From positions 368,463 to 432,462 of the forward strand of contig CP065002.1 in NCBI GenBank assembly GCA_016700095.1: a stretch of 64,000 nucleotides of DNA. The letters are read 5' to 3'. Positions 5,601 through 45,981 of this stretch are shown piece after piece. The notes below the pieces were generated by a model. That model made no database searches. It saw nothing but the letters and a program-made list of their open reading frames with translations, and was not told where the DNA came from. How positions within the stretch are numbered: position 1 is the first letter of the stretch; every line of letters begins with the position of its first letter. The translations under genes and the position numbers were made by a program. The stretch is from Candidatus Woesebacteria bacterium (GTDB lineage Bacteria > Patescibacteriota > Microgenomatia > UBA8517).

Positions 5601-8600
5601 TGCCTGTGATATTAACATCACCCACATTGGCATTATCTGTAATGGTCATTAGATCATTACCCGAGGTATCTTCAAAGGTTAGAGTACCTGTTGTACTTTC
5701 AAACATCCTTACTCCATCAAAGAGTAAAAAGTTTGCATCAAGGTCAAGTGCTGTAACAATATCAGTATCACTTAAATCAATACCTGTTGTTATCCCTCCT
5801 GCTTCACTTACAAAGGAGAGACCAGTTGCTACTGCCGTATCCGTATCTGAATTATCAAGGACAAGTAGAGCTTCGGTTGCCCCACTACTTGCTGCATTAT
5901 CAATTACCAATCCGTTTTGAGTACCACTTGAGCTGGCATTGGTTAAAGTAAGGGTAGTGGAGTTGGCATTTGCTGTTCCACTAAGAGCCTGGTTTACTGC
6001 GAGTAAACTATCCGAATCAAGAGTAATTGTCAGGTCATCGGTTCCAGCCGGTGTAAACCCTACATTACCTGTAAAGGTAAAATCATAGTCCTGGTTAACA
6101 GCAACATCATCTGCATTAACGGTAATGCCATTACCTGCTCCAACGGTAAAGGTGGTATCACCATCTGCACCGACAAGGACATTATCTGCTCCACCTGTAA
6201 GGCCACTTCCTGCAACTGCGTCACCTAGTAGCCTTACTGTAAAGTCAAGGTTTTCATCACCATCATCACCGTTAGTTAGATTGGTTAGTATATTGCCATC
6301 ACTACTGGTGAACCTTAAGATGTTGGCATCCACAACAGAGTAGGTATCAGTATCATCATCGGCTATCGTCCAGGAAGAGAAAGCACTTACACTGGTTGTC
6401 CATCCGCAGTTGGTTTCAGAAACATCGCAGACCAAATCATCTCCCCAGTACAGATCTCCCGATGCACTTCCTGCTGAAGCTGCATTGAAGCCAAAGACAT
6501 TGTCAGTATCTGCATCACTGTTTAGGCCGAGGGTGGTTCCGTATACAGAAAGGGTTGAAGTAAAGACTCCCGAACCGTTTACGGTGAATAGATTGTCAGC
6601 AAATGAGAGAAGATCTAAATCTGAACTTAATCCAATATTTGTACCATCAACCGTTAAAGAATCAATATTTAACTGAGTTCCTGTTATAACCCCTGCTGTT
6701 GTGATAGTCGCATTTGTTCCACCGACAGTAAAAGAAGCGTTTGTAACGTCGAGGCCGTTTTCGGCATCTACGTTACCTGAAAAACTAACTTGACCGGTTG
6801 AATTAAAATCAAGCGCGCCTGTACCAAGCGTTGATAGTGTCAAAGCACCAAGATCAATACTTGTAGCACTATCAAGAGAAAGAGTATCCGACAGTTCAGT
6901 GAAATTTAAGATATCATCGGCGATTGTTACGTTGGCTTCGTTGGCAGGGGAAGCTGTGACTGAGAAATCGGATGAAAAATCTATAGTATCCACGTTTACA
7001 CCTACAGTGCTGTCATTGTTTTCTATATTGACGATTGCAAATGCTGCACCGGAATCAGTTGAACACTCCCATGAGTCGTTTGCCTCATTCCATTTTAGAA
7101 CTTCACCATTTGCACATCCTTGCAGTAATCCAATTCCTCCGGCAAATACTTCCAGTCCAGATCCATTACTTACAGTTGAAGAAAGTCCATTTGTGGCTGT
7201 AATAGTTTGTATGGTCAACGCATTCGCACTAAGCGTCAAACCATCACCGGTGAAATCTGAAATAGTTTCCGAGTTAATAGTGATATCTCCTGCGATTTCT
7301 AGATTTCCACTATTATCTACGTCAAACAAATTATTACCCAGACTGTCCTCAAAAACGACCAGATCGCTTGATTGGGTACTATTGCCTTGTACAAGTAATT
7401 GAATTTCGTTAGAATCGCCGTCGATCGCTAATTTTGACGATAGGGAAGAATTGCCACCAATAATTACTTCGTCTGTTGTATTGTTTAAATAAATGAAACC
7501 GGTTTGTTGTGACCATTTTGAACTTCCGGCGCCAATCGCGGCATCCAAGTCATCAAGCACATCTTGGACATTTGTGCCTGAAGAATTAGCGAATTCAGCA
7601 AAAACTCCCACAAGTGAAGCGCCTGACATGTCTTCGTCTGATCCGGTATCGTTCAAACCGATTAAACCAATAGTTACATCTTGTCCTGAAGCAATTGTAA
7701 CTCCACCGACATCGGTGGTTATGCTGTCTGCAGTCAGGCTGTCTTGGATATCCACATTGCCTCCGGCGTTTATTGTTAACGTGGCTCCGTCGGCGGTAAT
7801 CATATCTCCATTTACCGCAAGATTACCGGTGATCGTCAAATCTCCGGCACTCTCATCAAAAAACAAAGCGGCGGTCGAATCGAGACCACCTATTGCAAAG
7901 TCATCTGTGAGACTTGTAAGGTAAGTAACTGTACCTGCGTCAGTAAAAAGGGAACTGGTTCCGGTTTTATCCTCTGCCCATGTAAATGTGCCTGTTGCGG
8001 AATTGTATGTTAGCACCTGATTGTCGGATGGGGTATTGGTTACCGACAGATGTCTGACAGTTATAGCTTCATCAGATATTTCGGATGATTCGACAGTATC
8101 ACCTATAACAGTTTCCAGAACATTATTAATTACTTGTAAGCCTGTACCTGTAAAATCGGCGATTGTATCTTGAGATAGCGTAAGTGAAGCTCCAATTTCT
8201 AACTCCCCAGAAACAAAAAAATCGCCGTTGGCGAGGTCTATTGTTGGAATTCCTGTACCTATAGTGACACCTCCACCTCCTGGATCGATAATTATGTCAC
8301 TAACCGATGTAATTGTATTGCCGGATAGATTCAATACTCCACCGATATCTAAGTTGCCATCAACACTGGCATCATTTTTTAAATTTGTTTTTACATAAAC
8401 ATTGAAAGACTGATCTGCGATAGATTGACTAGTCAAAGCTAGTACTTTGCTTTCTTTGTTTATGCTTTGTTTATCCATGCTTGCAATACGCACGGGGAAA
8501 ACCCTTGTCATTGTTTCGTTTATGTTTTTCTTTACCGCATTTGGAGTGATATGGCTTATTATTTTTATAGAGCTTAATGTAAGAAGTAATACTCCGGCTA

Positions 8601-32704: not shown

Positions 32705-33474
32705 TGCAGGGTCCAACCCTGCAGACACGTTATTAATCGATTGACAACTCTTTCGACAAAGCAGGTGGTTCAAGATCGTTCATGAAGTTTTGATACGTAT
32801 TGTTTGATTTAATTTCAGTGAGTTTGGATTTCGAGAATATAGATAACACAATCTCTGGTTTAATCCAACTTCTTTTGCTCATTCCCAGATAATCAGAACA
32901 TGAAGAGTGCCAATTCGAAATGTCGGTAACAATTCCACGAGGATTTAAATGAATATATTTGGTTAGGTGGAGCAAGTATATGTCATTTTCGACAAGTGAA
33001 GCTCGATAATTACTTTGAAATAAAGTACCAACACGACTATATTTTTTATTAAAATACATTGAGTATCTTGTGGTTATAGAATGCATGAATTTTTCCATCG
33101 AATTTCTTAATTCTTGTCTAATTAATAAATGAAAGTGATTGGGCATCAAACAATATGAGATTAAATCAATCTCTTTTTCAAAGTTTTGAGGAAGTCGTTT
33201 GGGCACATCAAAACCATCAATATGTTGATGATATGGGGGAGTTAATGCTTCGACAAGGAGACAAGTGAACTTTTTGTAATCACTCGGGTCTAAAAATATA
33301 CTTCTTTTTTCTACACCACGGTTGTATACATGGTAATAGCTGTGGTCAGCATAAACTTTGACTACATTTCTTCGCGGCATCTCTTTGGTACTTTCATGTT
33401 AAATCAATATGTTAAGTAGTGCAACATATTACGATGGGGTGCAGGGTCCAACCCTGGCAGGGTTGGACCCTGCA
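32705..33474 (-). mobile_element. REPtron-like unit: Y1 HUH transposase gene flanked by REP hairpins (single REP 3' of the gene, inverted REP doublet 5' of it)
   Basis: tgcagggtccaaccctgca at 32705..32723 (hairpin: stem gcagggt/accctgc, loop cca). Doublet tgcagggtccaaccctg + gcagggttggaccctgca at 33440..33474. Transposase CDS 32733..33380 lies in between. Confidence 0.7.
32733..33380 (-). CDS. Y1 HUH transposase, IS200/IS605 TnpA / REP-associated tyrosine transposase (RAYT)-like
   Basis: MPRRNVVKVYADHSYYHVYNRGVEKRSIFLDPSDYKKF...LISYCLMPNHFHLLIRQ (HuH motif)...FMHSITTRYSMYFNKKYSRVGTLFQSNYRASLVENDIYLLHLTKYIHLNP matches the Y1 transposase family pattern; 215 aa. Confidence 0.8.
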   Translation of the reverse strand: MPRRNVVKVYADHSYYHVYNRGVEKRSIFLDPSDYKKFTCLLVEALTPPYHQHIDGFDVPKRLPQNFEKEIDLISYCLMPNHFHLLIRQELRNSMEKFMHSITTRYSMYFNKKYSRVGTLFQSNYRASLVENDIYLLHLTKYIHLNPRGIVTDISNWHSSCSDYLGMSKRSWIKPEIVLSIFSKSKLTEIKSNNTYQNFMNDLEPPALSKELSID

Positions 33475-33715
33475 GACTGCAGACAAAATACATACTGTGA
33501 GGCGGCAAGAGTACTTGAGCCGGGAGGACTTCTTATCCTGAACCGTATCGGAACAGAAACTACACACGAAGCACTTGCTGCAATGAATGGACTAAAACTA
33601 GTTTGACAAGATACCAGACCAGATACGATGTCTCGTGATGCAGTATTTATCAAACCCCTCGAAACTTTTCCGCATGAGGTATAAATACTGTTAGTACTAT
33701 AGACTTTTGTAAAAT

Positions 33716-33988
33716 ATGTTAAATGTGTTAGAATATGATTCCCTCCTTAGAATAAAGTGCTTAACTAAAAACAATATGCCTGAAAGATTGACGGAAGAGG
33801 AGTTAGTGTCCTTAAGAGATAAAGCCACCAAAGCTGCGTGTGATAGTTGGCAAACTGCTGTGGTTGGTGGCGAAATTGTAGTTGGGTATGCGGTCCCGAC
33901 TACTAGGCAGTATTCATTGGAGAAAGAACGACAATATGGATTAAGAAGGAAAGTCCCGGAACCCGAACCTCCAATTTACACAGAGTAA
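33716..33988 (+). CDS. Hypothetical small protein
   Basis: 90 aa (likely start at the internal MPERLTEEEL); no family recognised. Confidence 0.3.
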   Translation: MLNVLEYDSLLRIKCLTKNNMPERLTEEELVSLRDKATKAACDSWQTAVVGGEIVVGYAVPTTRQYSLEKERQYGLRRKVPEPEPPIYTE

Positions 33989-34634
33989 GTGATTGAAAGC
34001 GTTTAAAATATAAAATAATTTAATATCATATATAATTCCTAATGACACTTATTGAGCCAATTCCTTTAGCCAATAAAACACGGCTAGCAACAAGCAAACA
34101 AAACACAAGATCCCTCGACTGTCGCTTGAGATGACAATCTAGTAATGTTTGAGACGAAAAACCAAAAACACTCGAGATGATATAGGTTGTTATATTGACC
34201 GTTCCTTTTGTCATTTCGACCAGCTTCATTTTGTTATTCTGAGGTTTCCTTTTGTCATTTCGGCCACAAATGGAGAAACTTAATTACATAACTTCCATTA
34301 ATTGCAAAAACATTGCTTACCTTCGTTTTACCTGTGGGTTTACTTGTTCTTCCTTAGGTGGATGGGAATTGTGATTTACCTGTTTATATCTTTCTATTGG
34401 AATAATCCGACTTCCTTCGTGTCCGCCATCTTGTCGTTTAATAGGATTTTTGCCACGTTTATCACAATACAATGGTTGTCTTGCTAAATCTAAATCTGGT
34501 GTCATATAACCCATAATATCAATTTATGGGAAATAATCAATTCTTGATTGGCTTGTAAAGGTGTAATAAAATCAATTTTTGGTAGCTTATAATATATTTA
34601 ATATTAGTGAGTGAAACGGAGCATTGGTTTGCAT

Positions 34635-34668
34635 GCAGGGTCCAACCCTGCCAGGGTTGGACCCTGCA
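34635..34668. repeat. REP-A inverted doublet (tgcagggtccaaccctg c cagggttggaccctgca)
   Basis: Same 17-nt hairpin unit as at 32705 and 33440, in head-to-head orientation; lies between small ORFs in an intergenic region. Confidence 0.85.
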
Positions 34669-34767
34669 CCCGCACCCCCAGCTTGTATATTTTGTACACT
34701 ATGCGTAATTTGCCTAATTCGTCGTTTGTTTGTAAAATACTGTTTATAAGTGTGAGGAGGTGATTAT

Positions 34768-34935
34768 ATGGAAAAAGATAAAAAAGGAAGAGAATTGACT
34801 CCCGCTCAAAAAGATTTGGCGGCAGTAGATAGACTAGCAGAAAAGGGAACAAAAGTAGTGGTTACCATAGAGACTGATAGTGGTGGTACTATTCACGTAA
34901 ATAGAAATAAAGATAAGGATGGTAACCCTGTCTAA
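34768..34935 (+). CDS. Hypothetical 55-aa protein MEKDKKGRELTPAQKDLAAVDRLAEKGTKVVVTIETDSGGTIHVNRNKDKDGNPV (below the ORF-track cutoff)
   Basis: Strong Shine-Dalgarno GAGGAGGTG 7 nt upstream of the ATG at 34768; clean ORF to TAA at 34933..34935; it follows the REP doublet. Confidence 0.4.
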   Translation: MEKDKKGRELTPAQKDLAAVDRLAEKGTKVVVTIETDSGGTIHVNRNKDKDGNPV

Positions 34936-35115
34936 ATTACTGGTGAATTGAATTATTATACGCTTGTGAAGATAGAGAACTTGCAAAATAATAGATATCA
35001 CGGCGAATTAATAATTAGGTTAATTACTAATGTAGTGTAATTGAAAATGGTGAGTAAGAGTATTCTATGTGATTTATAAGCAATTAAATATTATCTTAAA
35101 CTGTGTGATCTAGTT

Positions 35116-35826
35116 TCAATACCCCCCAAACTTATACGGGATTTTGTTAGCGACCCGTTTCATTTTTAAACAATGAAGCAGAGTGAGGATCGTGTATTGA
35201 CTCATTACCTTAATTACTCCTTCTTTCACAAATCTTCTATCCGAACCCTTGACGTAAGTTTTAAGTATCTTAAATTTGCCTTTTCTACCCAACCGTCGTA
35301 TAAACTCCCAGTCTTCGTATGCATTGTATGTCTCATCAAATCCACCGTGTTTAATTACATGGCTTTTCGTCGTGATGATACACATTCCGGCGCCTGAGGG
35401 TGCAAATTTTTGCGTCACAACAAAAATTGAATTTATAAAAGCAAAGCACAGTTTGATATCGGGGTGTTTTGAGTCCGCCCTGTAATTAGGGCAAGCGATA
35501 TGCAAATCGTGTTTATAAAATTGATGTAATGAATTTTCAATGAATTTTTCATTAATTCTGACATCTGCATCCATAAGAATAATAATTTCACCTGTTGATT
35601 GTGCAATTCCAAAATTCCTTTGGTGTACGACGCCCTTTTTGTGAATGTGGAATATTGGTTTTAGTTTGTGGGTGGTTACGACTTTCTTGGTTTTGTCTAC
35701 CGACTTGGCATCGACGACAATAACTTCATGGGGCAATAGTGTCTGGTTAGATAAATCATCAAGCAAGTTGCCAATATATTTTTCTTCATTCAAAGTGGGT
35801 ATTATGACTGAAATTTTGTGTTTCAT
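35116..35826 (-). CDS. Family 2 glycosyltransferase (CrtQ/CruC-like position in a carotenoid cluster)
   Basis: GT2 N-terminus KISVIIPTLNEEKYIGNLLDDL, VIVVDAKSVDKT and MDADV (DxD-type); overlaps the upstream prenyltransferase by 4 nt. Confidence 0.7.
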   Translation of the reverse strand: MKHKISVIIPTLNEEKYIGNLLDDLSNQTLLPHEVIVVDAKSVDKTKKVVTTHKLKPIFHIHKKGVVHQRNFGIAQSTGEIIILMDADVRINEKFIENSLHQFYKHDLHIACPNYRADSKHPDIKLCFAFINSIFVVTQKFAPSGAGMCIITTKSHVIKHGGFDETYNAYEDWEFIRRLGRKGKFKILKTYVKGSDRRFVKEGVIKVMSQYTILTLLHCLKMKRVANKIPYKFGGY

Positions 35827-36668
35827 AACAAATGCAGAGCGCTTACACTAAACAATAAGAATCCGACAATTAAATTTATGGCGGGGAAGTACCAATATAG
35901 TTTTATATAGTCTTTTTCACTTATCTTAAATGCAAGGAAAGCAATAGAAGGATACGTTAGGCTAACTAAGCTAAGTGTGACTGGCATATTTATATAAAAC
36001 AAAATGAAACTAGTAAGTGACCAGAATAAAACACACAAAATGATCGCGTTTTTTCTACCTAGAAATACAGCCGTTGTTTTTAATTGTGCATTTTTGTCTG
36101 CCTTGATGTCAGGAATTGCCGAGAATATATGCATAGCAAATGCCCAGAAAGAGGCTGCCAAAATTATTAGAAGTGGTGGATATGTATTTGTATTTTGGAA
36201 GTATCCGACAAGCCCCGGAGTGATATATAAAAAATTTGCACCAAAATCCAGAAACGGTCTTGCCTTTAGTCTAAATGGGGAAGCGGAATAAAGATAAGAA
36301 AGAGCTAGAAAAAGCGACAATGACATCATCGAAAGGAATGATGTTTGGATAATTAGTGTAACAATTCCAATCAAAAAACAGTACAAGGTAGCTCGAGAAA
36401 GTAATTTGTCTTTTTGGCTGGCGACAAATTCTTTGCCTTTCTTTTTTACCGAATATTTATCGGTATCCGAGTCGTATAAATCATTTATGCCATAGAGGAA
36501 TAAATTTGCGGGTAACGTAAAAAAAATAAATGTTAAAAGAAAAGTCAAACTTAGAAAATCAGCTTTGTTTGCGACAGATGTAAACCCCACAAGGTAAGTT
36601 CCCAGAAGATATGGATAAAAACGCGGACGAGAAATGTAGACTAACTTGCCGAATTTAGATTTTGCCAT
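35823..36668 (-). CDS. UbiA-family integral-membrane prenyltransferase (lycopene elongase / carotenoid-modifying type by context)
   Basis: Polytopic membrane protein with the aspartate-rich motif NDLYDSDTD (NDxxDxxxD); co-oriented and overlapping with crtB and GT2. Confidence 0.6.
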   Translation of the reverse strand: MAKSKFGKLVYISRPRFYPYLLGTYLVGFTSVANKADFLSLTFLLTFIFFTLPANLFLYGINDLYDSDTDKYSVKKKGKEFVASQKDKLLSRATLYCFLIGIVTLIIQTSFLSMMSLSLFLALSYLYSASPFRLKARPFLDFGANFLYITPGLVGYFQNTNTYPPLLIILAASFWAFAMHIFSAIPDIKADKNAQLKTTAVFLGRKNAIILCVLFWSLTSFILFYINMPVTLSLVSLTYPSIAFLAFKISEKDYIKLYWYFPAINLIVGFLLFSVSALHLL

Positions 36669-37629
36669 GTTTGATGGATACGTGTTTAATTCCGGCGCAC
36701 CAATAGCCGATTGCGGGTAACTGGCAAATAGTGTTTCTAATTAAACATAATATTACTTTAGAGGGTGACGGTTTTACTACTTTCTCAAAAACGATTAAAG
36801 GATTTTTGTAAATTACTTGTGCGGTCCAATCATACATATCTGATGATGTCATGATGGGAATAAGAAGCCGTGGTGGAATATAACGGTAACCTTCCTTTGC
36901 TTTGACCATCCATGTCTTGTAGATATCAATCTGCGCACGGATTAGGGTGACGAATTTTTGCTCGTCGGTAGTATTTGTAGGCCTAGTTAAATTACTAAGA
37001 CCGTATTTTTTTATTTCAGAAAGGGGAATGTAAATTCGCTTGAGTGAGTTATCAGTCGATACATCACGGATAATATTTAAATATTGATAAGCTCGTCCAA
37101 GCATTTTGGCCGATTCATGGCTAGATTGGGGTAGTGACATTATTTGTGCCATCATTAGACCGATTACTTCGGCTGAGCCGTACATATACTTTTTGATTTG
37201 AGGAAAGTCACTACACACGTTTCCATTAAAATCCGCTCTCATCGAATCAAGAAAAGCATCAACCCACCTCTTGTTGAAGTTTCTTCGTCGCGTGAGTTTA
37301 ATGAAATTGTCTATCACTAAGTCATTACAGATCTTCTGTGATTTGTAAGCTTTTTCAAATTTCTTTCTAAAGGAAGTAAAACCGTCTCTGTTTTGATTTT
37401 TACTATCAACAAAATTGTCGGCAATTCTTACAAAAGCATATAAATTAAATACATCTTCACGAACCGATTTGGGAAAAAATAAACTTGACCAATAATAAGT
37501 TACGCTTCCTTTTTTGAAAATACCCTTAATCCTTTTGTGTATCATATTTTTTAATTCTGTCGCGAACCAAGTGAGATGATACAATCGCCGGTGGAACTCC
37601 GATTCCGGGGACAGTGTTGGCTCCGGCAA
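36655..37629 (-). CDS. crtB: Phytoene/squalene synthase family (CrtB-like)
   Basis: Motif LYAFVRIADNFVDS (cf. YAFCRxADDxVD), and a second Asp-rich/conserved region (...YQYLNIIRDV...IYIP). The longest ORF overlaps crtI by about 100 nt, so the true start is probably the internal Met near 37545. Confidence 0.7.
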   Translation of the reverse strand: MPEPTLSPESEFHRRLYHLTWFATELKNMIHKRIKGIFKKGSVTYYWSSLFFPKSVREDVFNLYAFVRIADNFVDSKNQNRDGFTSFRKKFEKAYKSQKICNDLVIDNFIKLTRRRNFNKRWVDAFLDSMRADFNGNVCSDFPQIKKYMYGSAEVIGLMMAQIMSLPQSSHESAKMLGRAYQYLNIIRDVSTDNSLKRIYIPLSEIKKYGLSNLTRPTNTTDEQKFVTLIRAQIDIYKTWMVKAKEGYRYIPPRLLIPIMTSSDMYDWTAQVIYKNPLIVFEKVVKPSPSKVILCLIRNTICQLPAIGYWCAGIKHVSIKHGKI

Positions 37630-39022
37630 AGAATAGATTATTTAGCTTCTTGCTTTTGTTTGTTGGTCGAAATATGGAAGACTGGAAAAGAGTGTGTGCC
37701 AATCCACCAAGGGCATTTCCGCCAGTGCTATTGTACCTTGAAGTAAAATCACTTACAGAAAAGATTTTTTTGTAAACAATGTTTTTCGCAATGTTTGTGC
37801 CTATTTTGTCGTCTATAAAATTAACAATGTAATTTGAGTAACTTTCTTTCCACATCTTATTTTCTTCTAACCCCGCGGCAATTGGAACTAAGACCATCAG
37901 ATTTTCGTGTCCTTTGGGAGCTACCTTGTCATCGGTCGCCGAAGTTTTATTTATATAAAAACTTGGGTTAGTTGGCCAGGTGGGAGTATCAAATATTTCT
38001 CTAAAATGTGCCTTCCAGTCTGATCCGAAATACAAAGTGTGATGAATTAGCTGTGGAAGTTTTCCCTTAACGCCAAGATAGAGTAAAAAAGCTGAGGGAG
38101 TAAGTATTTTTTTATCCCAATATTTGTCAGAGTAGGTGCGATAATTTTCATTGTCGATTAGACTTTCCGTAAACTTGTAATCGGCATTTGAGATGACAAT
38201 GTCATAAGCGACTTTTTTACCGTTTGTTTTAATGTGTGTAACTAACCCTTCATGAGTAATGATTTCTGTGACAGGGGAGTTGTAATGGTAAGTTACATTG
38301 TATTTTTTGCCTAATTTCACTAGACTTCTGACAATTTCGTAAATTCCACCTTTCGGATAAAAAACCCCAAGACCAAAGTCGGCATGTGCCATCATGGAAA
38401 AAAGCGCAGGTGCGTTGTCGGGGGAGCATCCTAAAAACACGATGTTGTAAGTTAGTATTTGCTGTATTTTTGGATTCTTAAAATATTTTGCGATATGGTT
38501 TTTGATAGGGAGAAAGTTTTGTACACCAAATGACTTGTTTATCAAATCTTTACTGAAAAGATCAAGCGGATTATCAGCGTTTTTATAAAGTATCGAATTT
38601 AATGCAATTTCATACTTAATTTTTGAATCGGCTAAATATTCGTCAAACTTTTTTGCTGCCCCTTTTTCTAAATTCTCAAATATCTGTTTGGTTTTTCCGA
38701 TATTCTCGGACATGTCGTAAAATTCTTTGTTTTCAAAGTAGACGCGGTACTGCGGATCAAGCGGAGTGAGTTTGAGTACATCGGACAGTTTCAAGCCAAA
38801 CTCAGCGTAATATTTCTCAAAGACATCGGGCATCATAAACCAAGACGGACCCATGTCAAAAGTAAAGCCCTTTTCTTTGTACAAACTTGCTCTGCCGCCT
38901 AATTGTTCATTTTTTTCGTAGACGTCAACTTTGTAGCCATCTTTAGCTAGCAGTGCAGCTGAGGCTAGACCTCCAATTCCTGAACCGATTATTGCAATTG
39001 TTTTGTGTGTATTTTTCGACAT
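37526..39022 (-). CDS. crtI: Phytoene desaturase-family FAD-dependent oxidoreductase (CrtI-like)
   Basis: N-terminal FAD fold KTIAIIGSGIGGLASAALLAKDGYKVDVYEKNEQLGGRA, and a C-terminal GANTVPGIGVPPAIVSSHL typical of CrtI; 498 aa. Confidence 0.8.
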   Translation of the reverse strand: MSKNTHKTIAIIGSGIGGLASAALLAKDGYKVDVYEKNEQLGGRASLYKEKGFTFDMGPSWFMMPDVFEKYYAEFGLKLSDVLKLTPLDPQYRVYFENKEFYDMSENIGKTKQIFENLEKGAAKKFDEYLADSKIKYEIALNSILYKNADNPLDLFSKDLINKSFGVQNFLPIKNHIAKYFKNPKIQQILTYNIVFLGCSPDNAPALFSMMAHADFGLGVFYPKGGIYEIVRSLVKLGKKYNVTYHYNSPVTEIITHEGLVTHIKTNGKKVAYDIVISNADYKFTESLIDNENYRTYSDKYWDKKILTPSAFLLYLGVKGKLPQLIHHTLYFGSDWKAHFREIFDTPTWPTNPSFYINKTSATDDKVAPKGHENLMVLVPIAAGLEENKMWKESYSNYIVNFIDDKIGTNIAKNIVYKKIFSVSDFTSRYNSTGGNALGGLAHTLFQSSIFRPTNKSKKLNNLFFAGANTVPGIGVPPAIVSSHLVRDRIKKYDTQKD

Positions 39023-39208
39023 AGTTGCTAATTAAATTATTAATATATGTTACACCGAATGACCCGGACAAATAAACAGAGTTTGTAAGGTAGAGATGAC
39101 GTTTTAATATTGACCTTATTTTACTTCTCGCAAATTAATAGCATTATGGCTTAATTTACGATGTAAGTCTTTAATTTAAAAAATCCACGACGATTAAGCA
39201 GTGCGTAT

Positions 39209-39258
39209 TTCCAACCCCGGGGGTTGGAACAGCCTCAAAACAACCCCGGGGGTTGGAA
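39209..39258. repeat. REP-B element: palindrome ttccaaccccgggggttggaa + 11-nt spacer + caaccccgggggttggaa
   Basis: Near-perfect palindromic 21-mer (stem ttccaacccc/ggggttggaa) repeated after cagcctcaaaa. An almost identical 50-nt element is at 63662..63711. Its end lies 8 nt from the 3' end of tRNA-Pro. Confidence 0.85.
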
Positions 39259-39266
39259 ATTTTGTG

Positions 39267-39338
39267 TCGGGGACCCGGGAATCGAACCCGGAGTCTCTCG
39301 ATCCCGAACCGAGCGCTCTACCATTAAGCCAGTCCCCG
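39267..39338 (-). tRNA. tRNA-Pro (anticodon CGG)
   Basis: Manual fold of the reverse complement: acceptor CGGGGAC/GTCCCCG (C1:G72, A73, typical of bacterial tRNA-Pro); D stem GCTT/GAGC; anticodon stem CTCGG/TCGAG with loop TTCGGGA; T arm CCGGG-TTCGATT-CCCGG; 72 nt; CCA not encoded. Confidence 0.85.
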
Positions 39339-39419: not shown

Positions 39420-39617
39420 ATGAGCGTTGCTTGTGAAAATAAAGACACTTGTACTTATTACGGGTCTCAGCGTGAACGGGCGCGTATACAAGCGAAGTAT
39501 CTATTTGACCGATCCGGAAAACCAGACGAACCAGTAACTGTTAACTTTAGATGTGCTAACTCGGAATACTGTAGTCAATCTGGATCAGTTACATATCCCA
39601 AGCCCGAGGCGCAATAA
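39420..39617 (+). CDS. Hypothetical small Cys-containing protein
   Basis: 65 aa, directly upstream of rsmI; no family recognised. Confidence 0.3.
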   Translation: MSVACENKDTCTYYGSQRERARIQAKYLFDRSGKPDEPVTVNFRCANSEYCSQSGSVTYPKPEAQ

Positions 39618-39646: not shown

Positions 39647-40369
39647 ATGTTTGATATAATCTTCGTTATGAAAGATATTCCCGTTAACTTTGGCAAACTT
39701 TACATAGTCGCTACGCCGATAGGGAATTTGGCAGATATTTCAAACCGGGCAATTGATGTACTCAAAAACGTTAATTACATTTTGGCTGAGGACACGAGAG
39801 TGACGGCAAAACTTCTTAACCGCTTTGATATTGACCAAAGATTAGTTAGTTTTCACCAACATACACCAGAACAGAAATATCTATCAGTACTCAAAGATTT
39901 AATTGACGGCAAAAACATTGCCTTTGTTACCGATGCTGGTACTCCCGGAGTTAGTGATCCGGGCAATGAATTGATATCTTATTTAATAGAGAAGGAGTCT
40001 TTGATACAGATAACTGCAATACCTGGAGCATCTTCTTTGACTGCGGCATTGTCGATTTGTGGGTTTGATACCACGCACGTTGTTTTCGTAGGTTTTATGC
40101 CCAAAAAGCATCAGAAACAAATTTACGACACGGTGAAATTAAGTGGTTATGCACTTTGTTTTTATGAGACGTCAGGGAGAATAATCAAAACACTTGACAG
40201 AATGATGGCAGAGTTTGGAGAAGAAAGAAACGTCTTTGTGGGCAGGGAACTGACCAAAATGTACGAAGAGACGTATCGGGGAAGTCTGATGGAAGTTAAA
40301 TTGCAGATTGAAAAATCTGTACAAAAGGGAGAAATTGTGGTTGTTTTGGATAAAGGGAGGAAAATGTAG
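39647..40369 (+). CDS. rsmI: 16S rRNA (cytidine1402-2'-O)-methyltransferase RsmI (tetrapyrrole-methylase fold)
   Basis: LYIVATPIGNLADISNRAIDVLKNVNYILAEDTRVTAKLL...VTDAGTPGVSDPG; likely start at the internal Met (39668). Confidence 0.8.
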   Translation: MFDIIFVMKDIPVNFGKLYIVATPIGNLADISNRAIDVLKNVNYILAEDTRVTAKLLNRFDIDQRLVSFHQHTPEQKYLSVLKDLIDGKNIAFVTDAGTPGVSDPGNELISYLIEKESLIQITAIPGASSLTAALSICGFDTTHVVFVGFMPKKHQKQIYDTVKLSGYALCFYETSGRIIKTLDRMMAEFGEERNVFVGRELTKMYEETYRGSLMEVKLQIEKSVQKGEIVVVLDKGRKM

Positions 40370-40601
40370 AGTTTAGCAATTAGAATTTAGAGTTTGGGAA
40401 TTAGAAATTGAGAGTAAAATAGTGCAATTAGAGTAATTAGATACTATTAATCACAAAGGTGGTACCCTTTAGATAAATAATTTGGAGTACTGAATTTATA
40501 GCGGATTCAAAGAAGTTCTGGGGTCAGACAAAGTACTTAATTTCTTCCTTCTTGCAATAATGTTTCTGAGAAATTAGAATACAATCTTGTGACAAAATTA
40601 A

Positions 40602-40805
40602 ATGGTAAATATAGAATTATTGGCCAAACAAGGGCAAAAAGCTGATGAATATGCGCAAAGAGTAACAACCCGCAAAGGACCTGGTGACCCTGTTCCTGGA
40701 AAAGATTTCCTTAGATTATCTGATCGAGACGCACGCAGGAAAACCGGTTTAACTACGATAGAGAAAGTAGAACCTAATGTTATAATTTTTAGAAGCCCCA
40801 AGTAA
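40602..40805 (+). CDS. Hypothetical small basic protein
   Basis: 67 aa; a 67-aa minus-strand ORF overlaps the same span, so orientation is uncertain. Confidence 0.25.
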   Translation: MVNIELLAKQGQKADEYAQRVTTRKGPGDPVPGKDFLRLSDRDARRKTGLTTIEKVEPNVIIFRSPK

Positions 40806-40859
40806 TTCTTGTTAATAATTTACGACAATAATTATTCATTAATTGAATTTGCAATCTTA

Positions 40860-40875
40860 CCAGGGCTGGACCCTG
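40860..40875. repeat. Degenerate single REP-A copy (ccagggctggaccctg, 1 mismatch)
   Basis: Matches cagggttggaccctg except t->c; marks the left edge of the higher-GC island. Confidence 0.6.
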
Positions 40876-41143
40876 TAATTCTGCTATACCTGTAATCTTG
40901 AAAAACGCTAGAGATTTAATATTTGTTTATTTAAACTTCCCGAAAACCGTGGATGATTAGACCACGGATGAAGGGAAGCAGGAAACAAACTTTTCGAAGA
41001 AAATCGAGGGTTCTCAATTTGTTTATTATCGACTAGAAGGTCTAGATTACTTAGGCCAAGTGATGTCGCTAGTGATAGATATTAAAGCAGTAATAAATCT
41101 TGTGTAGTTACTAGCCACAAACGGGACTTGATTTTCGAGTTTC

Positions 41144-41362
41144 GTGTTTTGTATAATTCGCTTTATGACTATTTCAGAAAATGGTAGACAAGCCATTTTG
41201 GTTTATAAAGATGGGCGATTACCAAAAGTCAAAGGTGTCCCGCAGTTGAGATGGACACCTGAAGTAATAAAAAATTTTACAATCTCAACTGAATTTAACA
41301 TGGAAGATAGAGGTCCTAATAGTGATTTTCAACCTAGAATAAGTGGTGAAGAGAGATATTGA
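41144..41362 (+). CDS. Hypothetical small protein
   Basis: 72 aa; probably starts at the internal MTISENG; no family recognised. Confidence 0.3.
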   Translation: MFCIIRFMTISENGRQAILVYKDGRLPKVKGVPQLRWTPEVIKNFTISTEFNMEDRGPNSDFQPRISGEERY

Positions 41363-41384
41363 TTATTTGTAGTACAATAGATAT

Positions 41385-41564
41385 ATGGCACAAGAAACTA
41401 TAGAACCAGATGTTTGGACACCTGTTGTGAAGACAGCGCAACAAATAGGTGAAGCCATTAAAGATACATTGGAAATTAAACCGCATATTGGAACCGGTAA
41501 AGCCGGGAAAAGGAGTGAAAAAGTACCAGCCCCCGAGGTGAAATTACCTGGACAAAAGCAATAG
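41385..41564 (+). CDS. Hypothetical 59-aa protein (MAQETIEPDVWTPVVKTAQQIGEAIKDTLEIKPHIGTGKAGKRSEKVPAPEVKLPGQKQ)
   Basis: Hand-translated; co-oriented with its neighbours. The competing minus ORF 41363..41569 is probably a shadow. Confidence 0.2.
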   Translation: MAQETIEPDVWTPVVKTAQQIGEAIKDTLEIKPHIGTGKAGKRSEKVPAPEVKLPGQKQ

Positions 41565-41763
41565 ATCAATCTCGATTATTTGCACTAGGCTTCAAATTGG
41601 AAATTGTAATAATCAAGGTAAAGGTAAAAAAACTCCAACCACATCACGCTTGGGTCCCAAACCGCCAGAGAACCGACAACGTTGAGGTTGATGGAATTTA
41701 AAGCCTATTAGCGCTAAATTGTACTTCCAATAATTCTGATATATAATATGCTCCTATAGTAAT

Positions 41764-42240
41764 ATGATTGAAAGACCGGTACAGGATTTGCCAAATTATA
41801 ATCAGACACCCCCTTTTGAACCTATTGTAGTCGAAGTAGGAGTAACAGGTGGTGACTTAGTCAGATATGAACGCTTATGTGAACCTACACCTGATATGCG
41901 TGGACCGATATCCTATCTATCAAATGCACAACCCCATGCCACTGTTTCCATGGAGATGCATGACTTTTCGAGTCTGTCCGTGAAGGCTCCAACAGCAGGT
42001 TTTGTAAATATGGACTCACACGCAAGTCCTGTTTTACAGGATCAAGAACCCATGACAATGTGGGAATTTGCACAAGTGGTGGGGAAACTTGGCGTAAATG
42101 GATTAGTCAGACTTGTACAAAAGGGTATGGGTAGTTACGAAAAACACAAAGATATTTGGTTGACTGTGGGTGCGATTAGTGCTGGTAGTGTTGCCTTTAA
42201 ATGGTTCTTGAGAAAAATGCACGGCATGGCTTGGGAATAA
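41764..42240 (+). CDS. Hypothetical protein with a C-terminal hydrophobic segment
   Basis: 158 aa; C-terminus ...IWLTVGAISAGSVAFKWFL; GC noticeably higher than the flanking genome. Confidence 0.45.
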   Translation: MIERPVQDLPNYNQTPPFEPIVVEVGVTGGDLVRYERLCEPTPDMRGPISYLSNAQPHATVSMEMHDFSSLSVKAPTAGFVNMDSHASPVLQDQEPMTMWEFAQVVGKLGVNGLVRLVQKGMGSYEKHKDIWLTVGAISAGSVAFKWFLRKMHGMAWE

Positions 42241-42243
42241 TAT

Positions 42244-42777
42244 ATGAAAGATAGATCGCCTTTGATTAATTTTTTCGGAAATGTAACTGCGTTGGCAACA
42301 TACGGTGTTGGTGTTTTTTTTGGTACTGATACCCAAGTTTCCCAACAACCACCCTATGGAAGTGAACCACAAGTAACACACCAAGTGGGACAAGTAGAAC
42401 AATTGCAAGATTGCACGTTAGGGAATTTAAATCCTGGGGCTCAGTCGGTATTTCTGTCGTGGATGGACGTTGTTGGCAGAGATGGTATGCAACGTATTAT
42501 TCAAAATGGAGGGCTTCCGACAATGGGAGGCGATTCTGCCGAAAAATGTCCACGAGAAGAAACGATTGATTTGACCGTGGATGATTTTCTTGCGGGTGTG
42601 GATGATCGTGAGATGGCTGCATTACATAATCAGTTAGAACAAAACAAACCCATTGTGACAACAGATGGAAAACGGGAACCGTTATTCCCCCCTTTCTTTG
42701 GGTTGGGTATGGCATTTGCTTGTGGAGGATTAATATATATAGGACTAAAGGTCCGACAAAGTGAAGGAGATTATTAA
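42244..42777 (+). CDS. Novel tail-anchored protein, paralog 1 (FGTDxQVSQQPPYGSEPQ family)
   Basis: MKDR...YGVGVFFGTDTQVSQQPPYGSEPQ...IIQNGGLPTMGGDSAEKC...GLGMAFACGGLIYIGLKV (C-terminal TM); 177 aa. Confidence 0.55.
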   Translation: MKDRSPLINFFGNVTALATYGVGVFFGTDTQVSQQPPYGSEPQVTHQVGQVEQLQDCTLGNLNPGAQSVFLSWMDVVGRDGMQRIIQNGGLPTMGGDSAEKCPREETIDLTVDDFLAGVDDREMAALHNQLEQNKPIVTTDGKREPLFPPFFGLGMAFACGGLIYIGLKVRQSEGDY

Positions 42778-42781
42778 TAAT

Positions 42782-43516
42782 ATGAAAGATAGATTGGGAG
42801 AGTTAATAATATTTGCAAAGAATGTACCGACCTTTATTGCATATGGGTCTTCTGTTTATTTTGGTACTGATGCCCAAGTTTCCCAACAACCACCCTATGG
42901 AAGTGAACCACAAAATCCACACCATACAGTGCAAGTGGATGCGGGAGATGAAGATGGACAAAATATATCTGCGCAGGTAGAGCCGACTCCTAATCCAGAT
43001 AGATGCAGGGCAAGTAATTTAGACTCTGAGGCATTAAGAACTTATCTTGCATGGAGAACAACTGTGGGTGGGGATAAGGAGAAGATTCAGGAAATAATCG
43101 ACAATGGAGGTTTATCCACAATGGGAGGAAATTCTAGTGAAGTTTGTAAACCGGAAGTAGTGCCAGAAGTAACAGTATTTGAAAATATGACTTTGGAGGA
43201 AATGCAAGCCAGGGTTGCAAGAGATTTGCAACATCAGATGGATGAACATAAAGCACCTAATCCTTATATACTACCGGCAATATGTGGAGGAGCTGTGTCT
43301 GCTGTGGCGTTAGTTGCTGGGTATATTGTGATTAAAAAGGCATATAAGAACGCACCCAATATGACTCCGGGGGATGAGTATAGAGAACCTAAACATGGTG
43401 GTAGGGTTGCTAGAACTGATGTGACTGAGGCTCAAAGGACAGATACAGATCCGCTTGAATTATGGAGTAGTTTTATAAATTCAATAGGCAGAAGACCTTC
43501 AGATGAGAATGACTAA
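42782..43516 (+). CDS. Novel tail-anchored protein, paralog 2 (tandem duplicate of 42244..42777)
   Basis: Same ATGAAAGATAGAT start as paralog 1; YGSSVYFGTDAQVSQQPPYGSEPQ...IIDNGGLSTMGGNSSEVC...AICGGAVSAVALVAGYIVIKKAY. The track ORF starts at 42761, but the internal ATG at 42782 is preferred. Confidence 0.55.
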   Translation: MKDRLGELIIFAKNVPTFIAYGSSVYFGTDAQVSQQPPYGSEPQNPHHTVQVDAGDEDGQNISAQVEPTPNPDRCRASNLDSEALRTYLAWRTTVGGDKEKIQEIIDNGGLSTMGGNSSEVCKPEVVPEVTVFENMTLEEMQARVARDLQHQMDEHKAPNPYILPAICGGAVSAVALVAGYIVIKKAYKNAPNMTPGDEYREPKHGGRVARTDVTEAQRTDTDPLELWSSFINSIGRRPSDEND

Positions 43517-43847
43517 TACTTCTTGTTTAACGGGTCTCCTTCATTGATTCTGTTCTATTTGCGTGTCTATCTTCCGGGCTACCTGAATATGCTGATTGTG
43601 GCGCCTGTATTGATGTAGTGGAAGCAATAATAACATCGCTCCTATTACCGATAGCTACAACCCCTCCAGTATTAGTTGGCTCTACACCCATAAGATTTTC
43701 AACATATTGTTGTTTAGTTTCATTCGTTCTTGGGGGAAGATCGTGTTGTCTATCAGCTGTCATAGTGGAATTATAACTATCCTGAGGGAGAAATGCAAAA
43801 CAATAGTTAAGATTGTAATCAGGTTATGTTTTATATATCCTTAAACT

Positions 43848-44330
43848 ATGGACAAAGGAACAAATCTTGTCGATCAGCCTCAAGTACCGGATAAATTACA
43901 AACGGAAATACACGCCGAGGAAGATTCGGAAAAAAACGAATCACATACAATTGTAAATACCCAGCGGACTTACAAGTTACCTTTTGTCATCGTGACTTTA
44001 CTATTCGTACTTTTTTGTGCGTCAAGTGTTTATCTATTTATCCAGAACAACAATCTGACAAATCAGAGAGAATCTTTGGATGCAAAATTAACTAGTTACG
44101 ATACGGATGTTGTTGCCGCACAAAATGAAGCGGAGAAATATCAACTAGAATACGATGAATTGGTAGGAGAGGTAAATGGCTATTTGCGGGAAATGGGAGT
44201 AATTTGCTCGGGAGATAAAATTGATTGTCTGGCAAATTACAGCAAGGAAAACGTCGCGACAGGTTCTTCTAATTTAGATATGAACGAAGCAAATACGTCA
44301 ACTTCTTCAGGGAAATTAGATGGTAATTAA
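43848..44330 (+). CDS. Hypothetical membrane-anchored coiled-coil protein
   Basis: TM LPFVIVTLLFVLFCASSVYLFI followed by a helical region with a QNEAEKYQLEYDELVGE heptad-like pattern; 160 aa. Confidence 0.45.
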   Translation: MDKGTNLVDQPQVPDKLQTEIHAEEDSEKNESHTIVNTQRTYKLPFVIVTLLFVLFCASSVYLFIQNNNLTNQRESLDAKLTSYDTDVVAAQNEAEKYQLEYDELVGEVNGYLREMGVICSGDKIDCLANYSKENVATGSSNLDMNEANTSTSSGKLDGN

Positions 44331-44396
44331 ATAGTAATGATGGTAGGGGATGGGATTTATAATTTGGCTGTTGGGGTTAAGTAATTGGAGTAGGAA

Positions 44397-44456
44397 TGAT
44401 TGCAGGGTTGGACCCTGCAGTTGTGGAATTATTGATTGCAGGGTTGGACCCTGCAG
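44397..44456. repeat. REP-A direct doublet: tgattgcagggttggaccctgcag x2 separated by 12 nt
   Basis: Copies at 44397..44420 and 44433..44456, both in ttgg-loop orientation; 16 nt from the 3' end of tRNA-Arg. Confidence 0.85.
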
Positions 44457-44471
44457 CTGTGCTGCTAATAG

Positions 44472-44543
44472 TGCCCTCGGCAGGAATCGAACCTGCAGCT
44501 AGCCCTTAGGAGGGGCTTGTTTTATCCATTAAACTACGAGGGC
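44472..44543 (-). tRNA. tRNA-Arg (anticodon CCU)
   Basis: Manual fold of the reverse complement GCCCTCGTAGTTTAATGGATAAAACAAGCCCCTCCTAAGGGCTAGCTGCAGGTTCGATTCCTGCCGAGGGCA. Acceptor 7 bp; D stem GTTT/AAAC; anticodon stem AGCCC/GGGCT with loop CTCCTAA; T arm GCAGG-TTCGATT-CCTGC; 72 nt. Confidence 0.85.
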
Positions 44544-44727: not shown

Positions 44728-45981
44728 CTACCTCAAACTCACGGAGTAGAGATTGGGGTAAGTATCTGTAGCGCCAAAGTTAGTAAGCAATATTAACCTG
44801 TCGTCGCTTACCGTCGGAAATGCGTAGGGCAAAATATAATTACCGGAATATACGGTTTGTCGATTGGTTCCGTCATAATCCATAATGACAACTTTGTCGC
44901 GGTCTGCGAGAATTATGTTTCTCGAGGTAGGAAACCAGCTTGCTCTTTTGGTATTGTTTGTATCACTATATCCACCTTCAATTATTAATCCTTCCGAGGT
45001 GTCATCGATCAGGTAATTCCGATCCTCTTCGATATCGTATACATATGTATGATTCGTTTTGATATTACGATCTTGTTTTTGGGTAGATGATCCCGGAAAT
45101 GGTTTTACTAAGTTGTCTTTTATGGTTGCTGACCCGCTCGCCAAATACATAACCATGTCGTTGTCGGGAGAAAACAAAACCTGACTTGCTTTGTCATTTA
45201 AGATTTCTGCCAGCTCGTCCGGTAACTCCTCTTTTTGTGAATTAATTATTTTCGCCCAATCGGTTTCCCATTCTTTCAGAATTAATTCTTTTTGGATGGT
45301 AATATTTATCCGTTCGTTTTGGGGCGTGAAGGATTGGGAATTGATTAAATATGCACCTTTGGGTGTCGTAAGCAAAATTTCCCGTCCGTCCGGTGACCAA
45401 ATCCAGGTTGAATTAGTTAAGTCACCGTCCGTAATTTTTCTCGGTTCTCTCGAAAAACCAACCGGTAAGTTAATCGTTTCGAAAATCCATAAACCGTTTT
45501 TGTCGTTTGCGGGATTAACAATGCTTGTTTGAGGTGGTATTGCATAAGCGATTTTGGTGAAATCGCGGGAGGGTGTCGGATTCAAAGCGCCGGTTAAGGT
45601 TGCGGCAGTTAGAGAAGGAGCCAGTTTGAAAAGCTGCGCTTTTACCTCAGTTACAATTTCTGCCTCCAGTGTAAGCCTTTTTGACCACGTCATGAAACCA
45701 TCTTTTCGAACTTCAATATCGTAATTGCCGGGTACAAGGGGAATCGTATCGTCTGTGGCCGATTTTACTTCACCGTTAACGAAAACCTGGGCGCCGGTGG
45801 GTTGTGATTTTATTGCCAGGAGTCCGTGTGGTGATAAACCCGTATCTTTGCTAAAACGGTATCCGCTGGCAAACAAGCCAAGTACTGTAGCGACACTGAT
45901 AACAATTATCCCGGTAATAGAAAAAAGCCCGAGTCTAATCAGATTAATCTTGGAAAACCCTTTGCTCTTTTTTGTCGACAT
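44728..45981 (-). CDS. Membrane-anchored PEGA-domain protein with a C-terminal beta-propeller-like region
   Basis: N-terminal TM; PEGA motif PTGAQVFVNGEVKSATDDTIPLVPGNYDIEVRKDGF; C-terminal TolB/WD-like repeats (DGREILLTT, DNDMVMYLASG); 417 aa. Confidence 0.55.
   Translation of the reverse strand: MSTKKSKGFSKINLIRLGLFSITGIIVISVATVLGLFASGYRFSKDTGLSPHGLLAIKSQPTGAQVFVNGEVKSATDDTIPLVPGNYDIEVRKDGFMTWSKRLTLEAEIVTEVKAQLFKLAPSLTAATLTGALNPTPSRDFTKIAYAIPPQTSIVNPANDKNGLWIFETINLPVGFSREPRKITDGDLTNSTWIWSPDGREILLTTPKGAYLINSQSFTPQNERINITIQKELILKEWETDWAKIINSQKEELPDELAEILNDKASQVLFSPDNDMVMYLASGSATIKDNLVKPFPGSSTQKQDRNIKTNHTYVYDIEEDRNYLIDDTSEGLIIEGGYSDTNNTKRASWFPTSRNIILADRDKVVIMDYDGTNRQTVYSGNYILPYAFPTVSDDRLILLTNFGATDTYPNLYSVSLR

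Follow-up and report, generated by a model that had tools for sequence, protein, structure and literature searches.

The interval between rsmI and tRNA-Arg(CCT) on a Candidatus Woesebacteria (CPR) chromosome is an accessory region of a fairly ordinary kind, and nothing shows it to be a foreign cassette. Comparison with relatives supports its description as a variable slot whose content differs by lineage, and we regard it as probably an old, fast-evolving, lineage-specific accessory slot that encodes envelope or surface proteins. All positions refer to the window, a 64-kb stretch of the 1.27-Mb genome (Table 1). The slot measures 4.1 kb from the rsmI stop (40369), the conserved gene bordering it on the left, to the 3' end of tRNA-Arg(CCT) (44471), which points toward it. 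An initial annotation had described the segment 40860-44456 as a GC-rich, REP-bracketed cassette of small co-oriented genes. Its positions for tRNA-Pro, tRNA-Arg, and rsmI were correct, its REP copies exist, and its plus-strand ORF starts (41144, 41385, 41764, 42244, 42782, and 43848) are borne out by the ORF list; the claims on GC, co-orientation, and the REP bracket did not hold. The supposedly co-oriented stretch contains an annotated minus-strand gene of 78 codons with host-like codon usage, and at the left edge, where a decayed REP does lie at 40860, a further gene (40602-40805) sits just outside the boundary that had been drawn.

Table 1 Features of the slot, its flanks, and the REP-associated transposase gene (window coordinates; strand "." where none applies).
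Feature	Coordinates	Strand	Details
RAYT-like IS200-family Y1 transposase	32733..33380	-	Pfam Y1_Tnp 4.7e-13, above gathering score
tRNA-Pro(CGG)	39266..39338	-	ARAGORN; Rfam 64 bits; left anchor of syntenic block
rsmI (16S rRNA C1402 2'-O-methyltransferase)	39647..40369	+	TIGR00096, E 4.5e-62, 210 bits vs cutoff 168
67-aa basic orphan gene IPM62_01920	40602..40805	+	GenBank annotation; singleton cluster; codon LLR 0.256
Decayed REP copy CCAGGGCTGGACCCTGTAATT	40860..40880	.	76% identity to REP reference; 55 nt past stop of 40602 gene
72-aa orphan ORF, start codon uncertain	41144..41362	+	ORF list; codon LLR 0.239
59-aa orphan gene IPM62_01930	41385..41564	+	Annotation; codon LLR 0.433
158-aa orphan gene IPM62_01935	41764..42240	+	Operon gene 1; self-match only among 5.8 billion proteins
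177-aa paralogue A, IPM62_01940	42244..42777	+	39% identity to paralogue B, E 1e-29
244-aa paralogue B, IPM62_01945	42782..43516	+	Paralogue A architecture; transmembrane helix 160-185
78-aa orphan gene IPM62_01950	43527..43763	-	Annotated singleton; codon LLR 0.231
160-aa bitopic membrane protein IPM62_01955	43848..44330	+	Transmembrane helix 43-65 (hydropathy scan)
REP doublet	44397..44458	.	Two exact copies of TGCAGGGTTGGACCCTGCA at 44401 and 44437, 36 nt apart
tRNA-Arg(CCT)	44471..44543	-	ARAGORN and Rfam; right anchor, conserved

The PEGA protein served to find relatives, which are distant, with identities of 50-55% in PEGA, 72-76% in MreB, and 48-53% in the rsmI orthologues. They share the order MreB-PEGA-tRNA-Arg-[x]-rsmI-tRNA-Pro, in which every close relative has tRNA-Arg after the PEGA gene and tRNA-Pro is placed alike relative to rsmI in L003, L004, L005, L006, L008, and L012. 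The question raised by the initial annotation, whether rsmI abuts tRNA-Arg elsewhere, can be answered positively: the slot is empty in L003 (gap of ~35 nt) and L008 (~10 nt), and other relatives hold unrelated cargo. L004 and L012 carry a 3.08-kb insert encoding a 150-aa ORF, a 79-aa ORF, and a 611-aa DUF5010 protein, and L005 and L006 a 3.24-kb insert encoding an HTH_17-M20 peptidase, TrmB, and PNPOx. The more distant L010 and L011 have a compact junction with the two tRNAs adjacent. L009, the relative most similar in PEGA protein and tRNA-Arg, encodes a homologue of the 43848 protein in the same place beside tRNA-Arg (34% identity, E 1e-15), and its sequence stops 73 nt beyond this gene; as the identity is only 34%, at least that part of the slot is old. 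For the remaining slot ORFs, related loci gave no match even with the threshold relaxed to E<=10. A genome-contig search with rsmI turned up Firmicutes alone, at 42-43% identity, and exact-product look-ups of five window proteins matched no contigs.

The same comparison bears on a reading in which the slot is ancestral and native, was lost from L003 and L008 by streamlining, and was replaced in the others, with no insertion here. CPR genomes are reductive, the region's composition is fully host-like (see below), and the L009 homologue dates part of it far back, all of which would suit this reading. We nevertheless consider it unlikely: three lineages have mutually unrelated slot content and two have none, L010 and L011 are compact too, and independent fillings of a compact junction take fewer events than repeated loss and replacement, although the direction of change (gain here or loss elsewhere) is judged by parsimony over few lineages.

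The composition of the slot is that of the host, and the compositional case for foreign origin fails. The initial annotation had put sampled stretches at 43-50% GC against about 33% in nearby housekeeping genes. Sliding-window analysis instead gave 0.399 for 40860-44456 and 0.388 for the window as a whole, and 22.8% of windows of 3.6 kb equal or exceed the segment in GC; the core (41764-43516) has 0.420, the highest 500-nt window 0.430, and the neighboring genes span 0.375-0.447 (rsmI 0.387, PEGA 0.423, MreB 0.447). The slight excess of the segment arises at codon positions 1 and 2, and GC3 of the slot genes (0.22-0.35) lies at or below the host mean (0.342 +/- 0.039 in 33 reference ORFs). The 4-mer signature is likewise host-like (distance at the 76th percentile). 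Codon-usage LLR per codon is 0.22-0.43 for slot genes; reference genes score 0.22 +/- 0.06 and shadow ORFs -0.03, and at most 1.2% of the latter reach the scores of the slot ORFs.

The REP copies at 40860 and 44397 are real, but they are not island borders, because they are dispersed copies of a REP family accompanied by the RAYT-like transposase. Further copies lie at 32705, 33440/33456, and 34634/34650, and in total the REP core is found in 8 copies at 5 intergenic sites of the 64-kb window, where shuffled sequences predict 0. The decayed copy retains this core (CAGGG-N5-CCCTG), which is confined to REP sites within the window, and folds no better than shuffles (z -0.97). The doublet, placed between the convergent 43848 gene and tRNA-Arg, folds as a single long hairpin (-40.3 kcal/mol, z -7.65 vs shuffles). 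The transposase protein has HUH (MPNHFHLL) and YIHLNP motifs, reaches 43 bits against NCBIfam REP_Tyr_transpos (3.6e-11; under the 80-bit cutoff), and its gene has REPs on both sides (32705-32723 and 33440-33474). It is the likely source of the REP copies. We also considered the REP as a tRNA-derived att site, given an 81% match to the tRNA-Arg T-arm, and rejected this since copies of this REP surround the RAYT gene 7-12 kb away; the decayed copy is identical to the T-arm stretch at 12 of 21 positions.

These hairpins would be copies of the genome's own REP/RAYT family that settled in intergenic DNA, and the doublet, lying between convergent transcription units, may serve as a transcription or RNA-stability barrier. 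Shared with described REP/RAYT (REPIN) systems (PMC3116915, PMC3337134, PMC5581495) are a ~19-nt palindrome that is intergenic, dispersed, and present as singles and doublets, and an IS200-like Y1 transposase with HUH and Tyr motifs and the same palindrome on its flanks. The likeness concerns the flanking repeats and not the slot genes, with copies counted in 64 kb only, and there are differences: the RAYT here falls below the NCBIfam cutoff, the 44401/44437 doublet is direct rather than inverted, and the host is a CPR bacterium. Among the papers listed by a full-text literature search, none links RAYT/REPIN with Patescibacteria.

What survives of the proposed horizontal acquisition is the variable insert itself, as seen by synteny; no donor came to light. 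Like tRNA-linked genomic islands (e.g., the E. coli pheV island, PMC11537424), the slot adjoins a tRNA 3' end, carries accessory cargo without known function, and varies among relatives in presence and content at a fixed chromosomal junction with conserved flanks. Unlike them, it lacks an integrase, att direct repeats, and any deviation in composition or codon usage, measures only 4 kb, and has no known donor or second copy. Because two defining features were tested and not found, we would not classify it as an integrative island. The statement that no integrase is visible proved accurate and extends to fragments: slot ORFs gave no integrase or recombinase match in Pfam, PHROG, or NCBIfam, and 30 six-frame fragments of the gene-poor stretches contained no recombinase remnants. 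The search for repeats showed no direct copy of the tRNA 3' end, the only flanking repeat being the dispersed REP. By tblastn, neither 50,697 phage records nor 72,556 plasmids gave a match to the slot, and its genes had none in IMG/VR scans.

These results speak against the idea that a tRNA-targeting integrative element (prophage or island) once entered at the tRNA-Arg 3' end, lost its integrase and att sites, and left the slot as its remnant, the small proteins being, for example, leftover lysis or superinfection-exclusion genes. Such an origin would account for the orientation of the tRNA toward the insert, the differing cargo across lineages, and the small, mostly co-oriented orphan genes; the L005 insert moreover begins with an HTH_17 (excisionase-type) domain, and the 43848 protein shows very weak PHROGs similarity to Rz-like spanins and others (E 0.005-0.09; spanin E 0.094). 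However, the absent recombinase fragments and tRNA repeat, the host-like GC3, codon usage, and 4-mer signature, and the lack of phage, plasmid, or IMG/VR matches all speak against it, and a search for a phage lysis cassette found no significant holin, endolysin, or spanin similarity in any slot ORF. An element remnant is, in our judgment, improbable.

Within the slot, 41764, 42244, and 42782 form a tight operon (3 nt between the first two genes), and the last two are tandem paralogues under purifying selection (dN/dS 0.39). Paralogue A has an N-terminal hydrophobic segment, a conserved FGTDxQVSQQPPYGSEPQ motif, a Cys pair, and a C-terminal transmembrane helix (146-170), and paralogue B additionally bears a ~55-aa charged tail; the 41764 protein has a weakly hydrophobic C-terminal helix. 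Between A and B the N-terminal targeting region is homogenised (dS 0.65) and the ectodomain highly diverged (dS 2.6). Both are predicted to be single-pass envelope proteins with conserved Cys pairs outside the cytoplasm, a topology taken from a simple hydropathy scan in which their N-terminal segment falls below the transmembrane threshold. Searches for distant homologues covered the operon genes and 43848, which match only themselves among 5.8 billion proteins, bar the L009 homologue. An A+B profile run against 1.84 billion representatives returned the pair itself and P0004, an 879-aa repeat protein (E 1e-6) that was rejected (hhalign 13% probability over 45 columns). Designed armadillo repeats came up in PDB sequence searches (E ~1e-3, 27 residues), which we took as chance, and 41764 was rejected as a third paralogue (hhalign probability 0.5%). 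AF2 models were unusable, with pLDDT 37 for paralogue B (two-sequence alignment) and 36 for the 41764 protein.

The 43848 protein comprises a ~42-aa N-terminal part, the transmembrane helix, a helical coiled-coil-like stretch, a C-x6-C motif, and an S/T/N-rich tail; the transmembrane segment, a VNxYLR motif, and C-x6-C recur in the L009 homologue. These features suggest a single-pass envelope protein with its cysteine pair outside the cytoplasm. Its sole Pfam similarity is to DUF6377 (E 0.002, 18 bits vs cutoff 36.7), with no DivIC or FtsL match at E<=0.1. Like FtsB/DivIC/FtsL-type proteins and phage Rz spanins, it has a short N-terminus, a single transmembrane helix, and an ectodomain of helical, heptad-like character, and its gene lies near mreB; the likeness is architectural only.

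All eight slot genes, annotated in GenBank within IPM62_01920-01955, look like real coding genes by their codon usage. The exact product of the 41144 ORF is absent from the protein collection, possibly because another start is annotated. A plus-strand ORF at 43618 that overlaps the minus-strand gene scores -0.045 in codon LLR. No slot ORF has a Pfam, PHROGs, PADLOC, or NCBIfam match above cutoff, so the six plus-strand ORFs of the initial annotation are indeed unrecognisable by these family libraries. Its "undescribed membrane-associated system" is right as to three genes with clear transmembrane segments and to searched genes without recognisable homologue, but nothing points to a coordinated system beyond the one three-gene operon. 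Rfam detected nothing in the gene-poor parts of the slot at either threshold, folding of intergenic 40370-40601 and 41565-41763 was no better than in shuffles, and promoter-like sites were not enriched (28 vs 21.6 +/- 4.1 in shuffles).

Most of the small ORFs could instead be non-functional, having recently arisen de novo or being annotation noise in a long, REP-colonised intergenic region, leaving only the paralogue pair and 43848 as real genes. In the protein collection every small ORF clusters only with itself, neither a transmembrane segment nor a motif occurs in the 78-aa minus-strand ORF or the three smallest ORFs (59-72 aa), and the AF2 models of the larger proteins are disordered. Yet all score like host genes in codon usage, at a level few shadow ORFs attain, the paralogue pair is under purifying selection, and 43848 is conserved in L009; we find it very unlikely that most are noise.

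The reading we favor remains an old and fast-evolving accessory slot. A long-ago insertion would have filled it with content that can no longer be told from the host by composition. At least 43848 would predate the split from the L009 lineage. The paralogues and 43848 may be fast-evolving surface or envelope components, perhaps involved in host-cell contact or forming a phage-exposed surface, rather than parts of an enzymatic or mobile "system". A far bolder proposal, to which we give little credence, is that the operon and 43848 represent an unseen, rapidly diversifying CPR-specific surface family for host-cell attachment or recognition by presumably episymbiotic Woesebacteria, with the tRNA-Arg|rsmI junction as a dedicated exchange hot spot for surface cassettes. 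An exposed domain undergoing diversification could give rise to the homogenised N-terminus and diverged ectodomain of the paralogues.

In streamlined genomes, hypervariable or flexible regions at conserved sites often encode cell-surface functions, and CPR bacteria have many orphan genes and a poorly understood cell-surface biology. The slot shares with hypervariable regions its conserved flanks, lineage-specific content, and envelope or membrane bias, with surface location here predicted from hydropathy and Cys pairs only. It differs in its few-kilobase scale and in that the comparison is among distant relatives, not strains. No new mechanism or system is revealed by the slot, and its chief worth is as a correction: the case for foreign origin from GC and REPs falls, and comparative synteny alone stands. 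What it offers is a handful of candidate envelope proteins and, as a variable slot with conserved flanks, a concrete place to follow gene turnover in tiny genomes.

We scanned metagenomes with the PEGA-domain protein encoded beyond tRNA-Arg as query and recovered 18 loci. The closer ones (PEGA 50-55%, MreB 72-76% and rsmI 48-53% identical to the window) share the order MreB - PEGA - tRNA-Arg(cct) - x - rsmI - tRNA-Pro(cgg), where x is whatever separates tRNA-Arg from rsmI. The initial annotation, which saw in the segment 40860-44456 a horizontally acquired, REP-bracketed, higher-GC cassette carrying an undescribed membrane-associated system, had proposed comparing this junction, and rsmI does abut tRNA-Arg elsewhere: nothing lies between them in L003 (gap ~35 nt) and L008 (gap ~10 nt). 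One organism (L004/L012, 99.9% identical) holds 3.08 kb in the same slot, with a 150-aa ORF, a 79-aa ORF and a 611-aa DUF5010 protein (12629-14464 in L012). Another (L005/L006) holds 3.24 kb encoding an HTH_17-M20 peptidase fusion with an excisionase-type HTH_17 domain (12136-13512 in L005, minus strand), a small membrane protein, a TrmB regulator and a PNPOx-like protein, and in the more distant L010/L011 the tRNAs are adjacent without rsmI between them. The tRNA-Arg/rsmI slot is variable.

A locus of only 1.6 kb (L009), with the most similar PEGA (55%) and a 95% identical tRNA-Arg, runs from PEGA and tRNA-Arg into a 144-aa homologue of the product of gene 43848 (island genes are named by window start) in the same relative position and orientation. 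The homologue (34% identity, E 1e-15) retains the transmembrane helix, the VNxYLR motif and the C-x6-C; because this strongly diverged gene is shared, the slot content is at least partly old. The island ORFs other than 43848 have no counterpart in any related locus, even at E<=10. An ancestral region, lost in the other lineages, is an unlikely reading. Similarly improbable for a variable segment adjoining a tRNA gene is a decayed tRNA-targeting element: no integrase or transposase was found among the slot ORFs or in 30 six-frame fragments of gene-poor stretches, and no att-like duplicate of the tRNA was found.

Eight small ORFs fill the 4.1 kb separating the rsmI stop from tRNA-Arg, and none gave a match of meaningful score in Pfam, PHROGs, PADLOC or NCBIfam. 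The products of 41764, 42782 and 43848 are annotated 'hypothetical protein' (IPM62_01935, IPM62_01945 and IPM62_01955, Candidatus Woesebacteria bacterium); other products of the locus are QQS39348-QQS39356.

Features of the slot and its surroundings, in window positions
Feature	Position	Strand	Remarks
Y1 transposase (RAYT-like) gene	32733-33380	minus	Pfam Y1_Tnp, 4.7e-13
Carotenoid-type cluster	35116-39022	minus	
CAACCCCGGGGGTTGGAAAT doublet	39207-39260		immediately 3' of tRNA-Pro
tRNA-Pro(cgg)	39266-39338	minus	
65-aa Cys-rich ORF	39420-39617		between tRNA-Pro and rsmI
rsmI	39647-40369		TIGR00096 E 4.5e-62, above cutoff
67-aa ORF	40602	plus	ORF list
ORF-poor spacer, 338 nt	40806-41143		
72-aa ORF	41144	plus	ORF list
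59-aa ORF	41385	plus	ORF list
158-aa ORF	41764	plus	ORF list
177-aa ORF (paralogue A)	42244	plus	ORF list
244-aa ORF (paralogue B)	42782	plus	ORF list
78-aa ORF	43527-43763	minus	only minus-strand one of the eight
160-aa ORF	43848	plus	ORF list
tRNA-Arg(cct)	44471-44543	minus	
PEGA-domain protein gene	44728-45981		

The Cys-rich ORF, called in a Logan assembly and absent from the GenBank annotation, is probably no gene, since its codon usage is unlike the host's (LLR 0.04). Within the slot, the ORF-poor spacer, which has no Rfam match, folds better than 100/100 shuffles (z -2.15); near 40936-40978 it contains a strong hairpin (CTTCCC..CCGTGG..CCACGG..GGGAAG), and its stem at 41121-41145 resembles a terminator. 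On the far side of tRNA-Pro, the carotenoid-type cluster encodes a phytoene desaturase-like amine oxidase, a squalene/phytoene synthase, a UbiA prenyltransferase and a GT2 glycosyltransferase, an unusual metabolic content in a reduced CPR genome.

Genes 41764, 42244 and 42782 form an operon, as the gaps between them are only 3 and 4 nt. The latter two lie in tandem and are paralogous (39% identity, E 1e-29), each with a moderately hydrophobic N-terminal segment, an invariant stretch QVSQQPPYGSEPQ, two conserved cysteines on either side of an NGGLxTMGG motif and one clear predicted transmembrane helix close to the C-terminus; paralogue B has an extra charged tail of ~55 aa, and the 41764 product just a weak C-terminal hydrophobic helix. 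The overall dN/dS between the paralogues, 0.39, indicates purifying selection. Their dS is 0.65 over the first 56 columns versus 2.6 over the remainder, and their 5' ends (42244-42400 vs 42782-42940) share 15 identical nucleotides around the start codon and 76% identity over 119 nt; the low 5' dS suggests either gene conversion or constraint at the nucleotide level in the part encoding the N-terminal targeting region. In the 43848 product, a single predicted transmembrane helix (residues 43-65) precedes a helical region and the C-x6-C.

The reported GC contrast of 43-50% against 33% was not reproduced: the segment has 39.9% versus 38.8% for the window, a value that 22.8% of 3.6-kb windows equal or exceed, and adjacent genes span 37.5-44.7%. 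Even the core (41764-43516) reaches just 42.0% and the richest 500-nt window 43.0%, and the modest excess falls on codon positions 1 and 2, i.e. on amino-acid composition. GC3 of the island ORFs is 0.22-0.35 vs 0.342 +/- 0.039 in 33 reference ORFs, and the segment's tetranucleotide distance to the mean of the window is unremarkable, being equalled or exceeded in 24% of windows. Under a codon-usage log-likelihood trained on the window's other long genes, every island ORF scores 0.22-0.43 per codon, compared with 0.22 +/- 0.06 for reference genes and -0.03 +/- 0.14 for shadow ORFs, at most 2.4% of which attain the island values. With all these measures host-like, foreign origin is without compositional sign, and the data argue that the island ORFs are real genes. 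The window's most deviant tetranucleotide signature lies at 1-7000, where long tandem repeats (period ~954 nt, some copies 100% identical across stretches of 300 nt or more) coincide with a GC of 0.43-0.445 and negative GC skew; they are probably part of a giant repetitive minus-strand gene running off the window start.

That the small ORFs are largely non-functional is a quite remote reading beside this coding signal. Searches of 5.8 billion proteins with the 41764, 42782 and 43848 products returned self-matches only, phage and plasmid collections (tblastn) and IMG/VR scans gave no match to the island, and the AF2 models were unusable (pLDDT 36-37). When a profile built from the two paralogues was run against 1.84 billion representatives, it recovered the pair itself and one weak repeat-protein match, which we rejected because its hhalign probability was 13%.

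As for the supposed REP borders, the palindrome TGCAGGGTTGGACCCTGCA has exact copies at 44401 and 44437 and further ones at 32705, 33440/33456 and 34634/34650, with an expected count of zero. There are eight occurrences of its core, CAGGG-N5-CCCTG, spread over five sites, every one a REP site; the copy at 40861 is decayed. The doublet at 44397-44458 forms a single long hairpin (-40.3 kcal/mol, z -7.65), and the copy at 40860 folds no better than shuffles. The Y1 transposase gene is IS200-like; its product carries HUH (MPNHFHLL) and YIHLNP motifs, and its top NCBIfam match is 'REP-associated tyrosine transposase' (3.6e-11, under that model's cutoff). REPs lie on both sides of it: one copy past the stop and, 60 nt ahead of the start, a doublet in inverted arrangement. 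Because the repeats are shared with this gene, they belong to the genome's REP/RAYT-type system (PMC3116915, PMC3337134) and do not mark the segment's borders specifically; REP is absent from all related loci. With the stretch 32705-33474, a CPR (Woesebacteria) genome carries a REP/RAYT system; none of the papers listed by our literature search connected RAYT/REPIN with Patescibacteria. A further inverted, REPIN-like doublet sits at 34634-34668, within a gene-poor stretch (33480-35100) of only small ORFs, and the CAACCCCGGGGGTTGGAAAT doublet, of a second palindrome type, may represent either another REP family or a terminator.

What stands of the horizontally acquired cassette is therefore its variability among relatives; neither transfer nor foreign composition nor REP borders could be demonstrated. 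The data support a lineage-specific accessory slot at the conserved tRNA-Arg/rsmI junction, holding real, host-adapted orphan genes, at least three of which encode predicted single-pass membrane proteins, and the feature is an ordinary case of the known variable accessory region adjoining a tRNA gene. The conserved cysteine pairs of the membrane proteins suggest extracytoplasmic domains. On the accessory slot, the membrane proteins and the cysteine pairs taken together, we favour, with moderate confidence, fast-evolving envelope or surface proteins in an old insertion.
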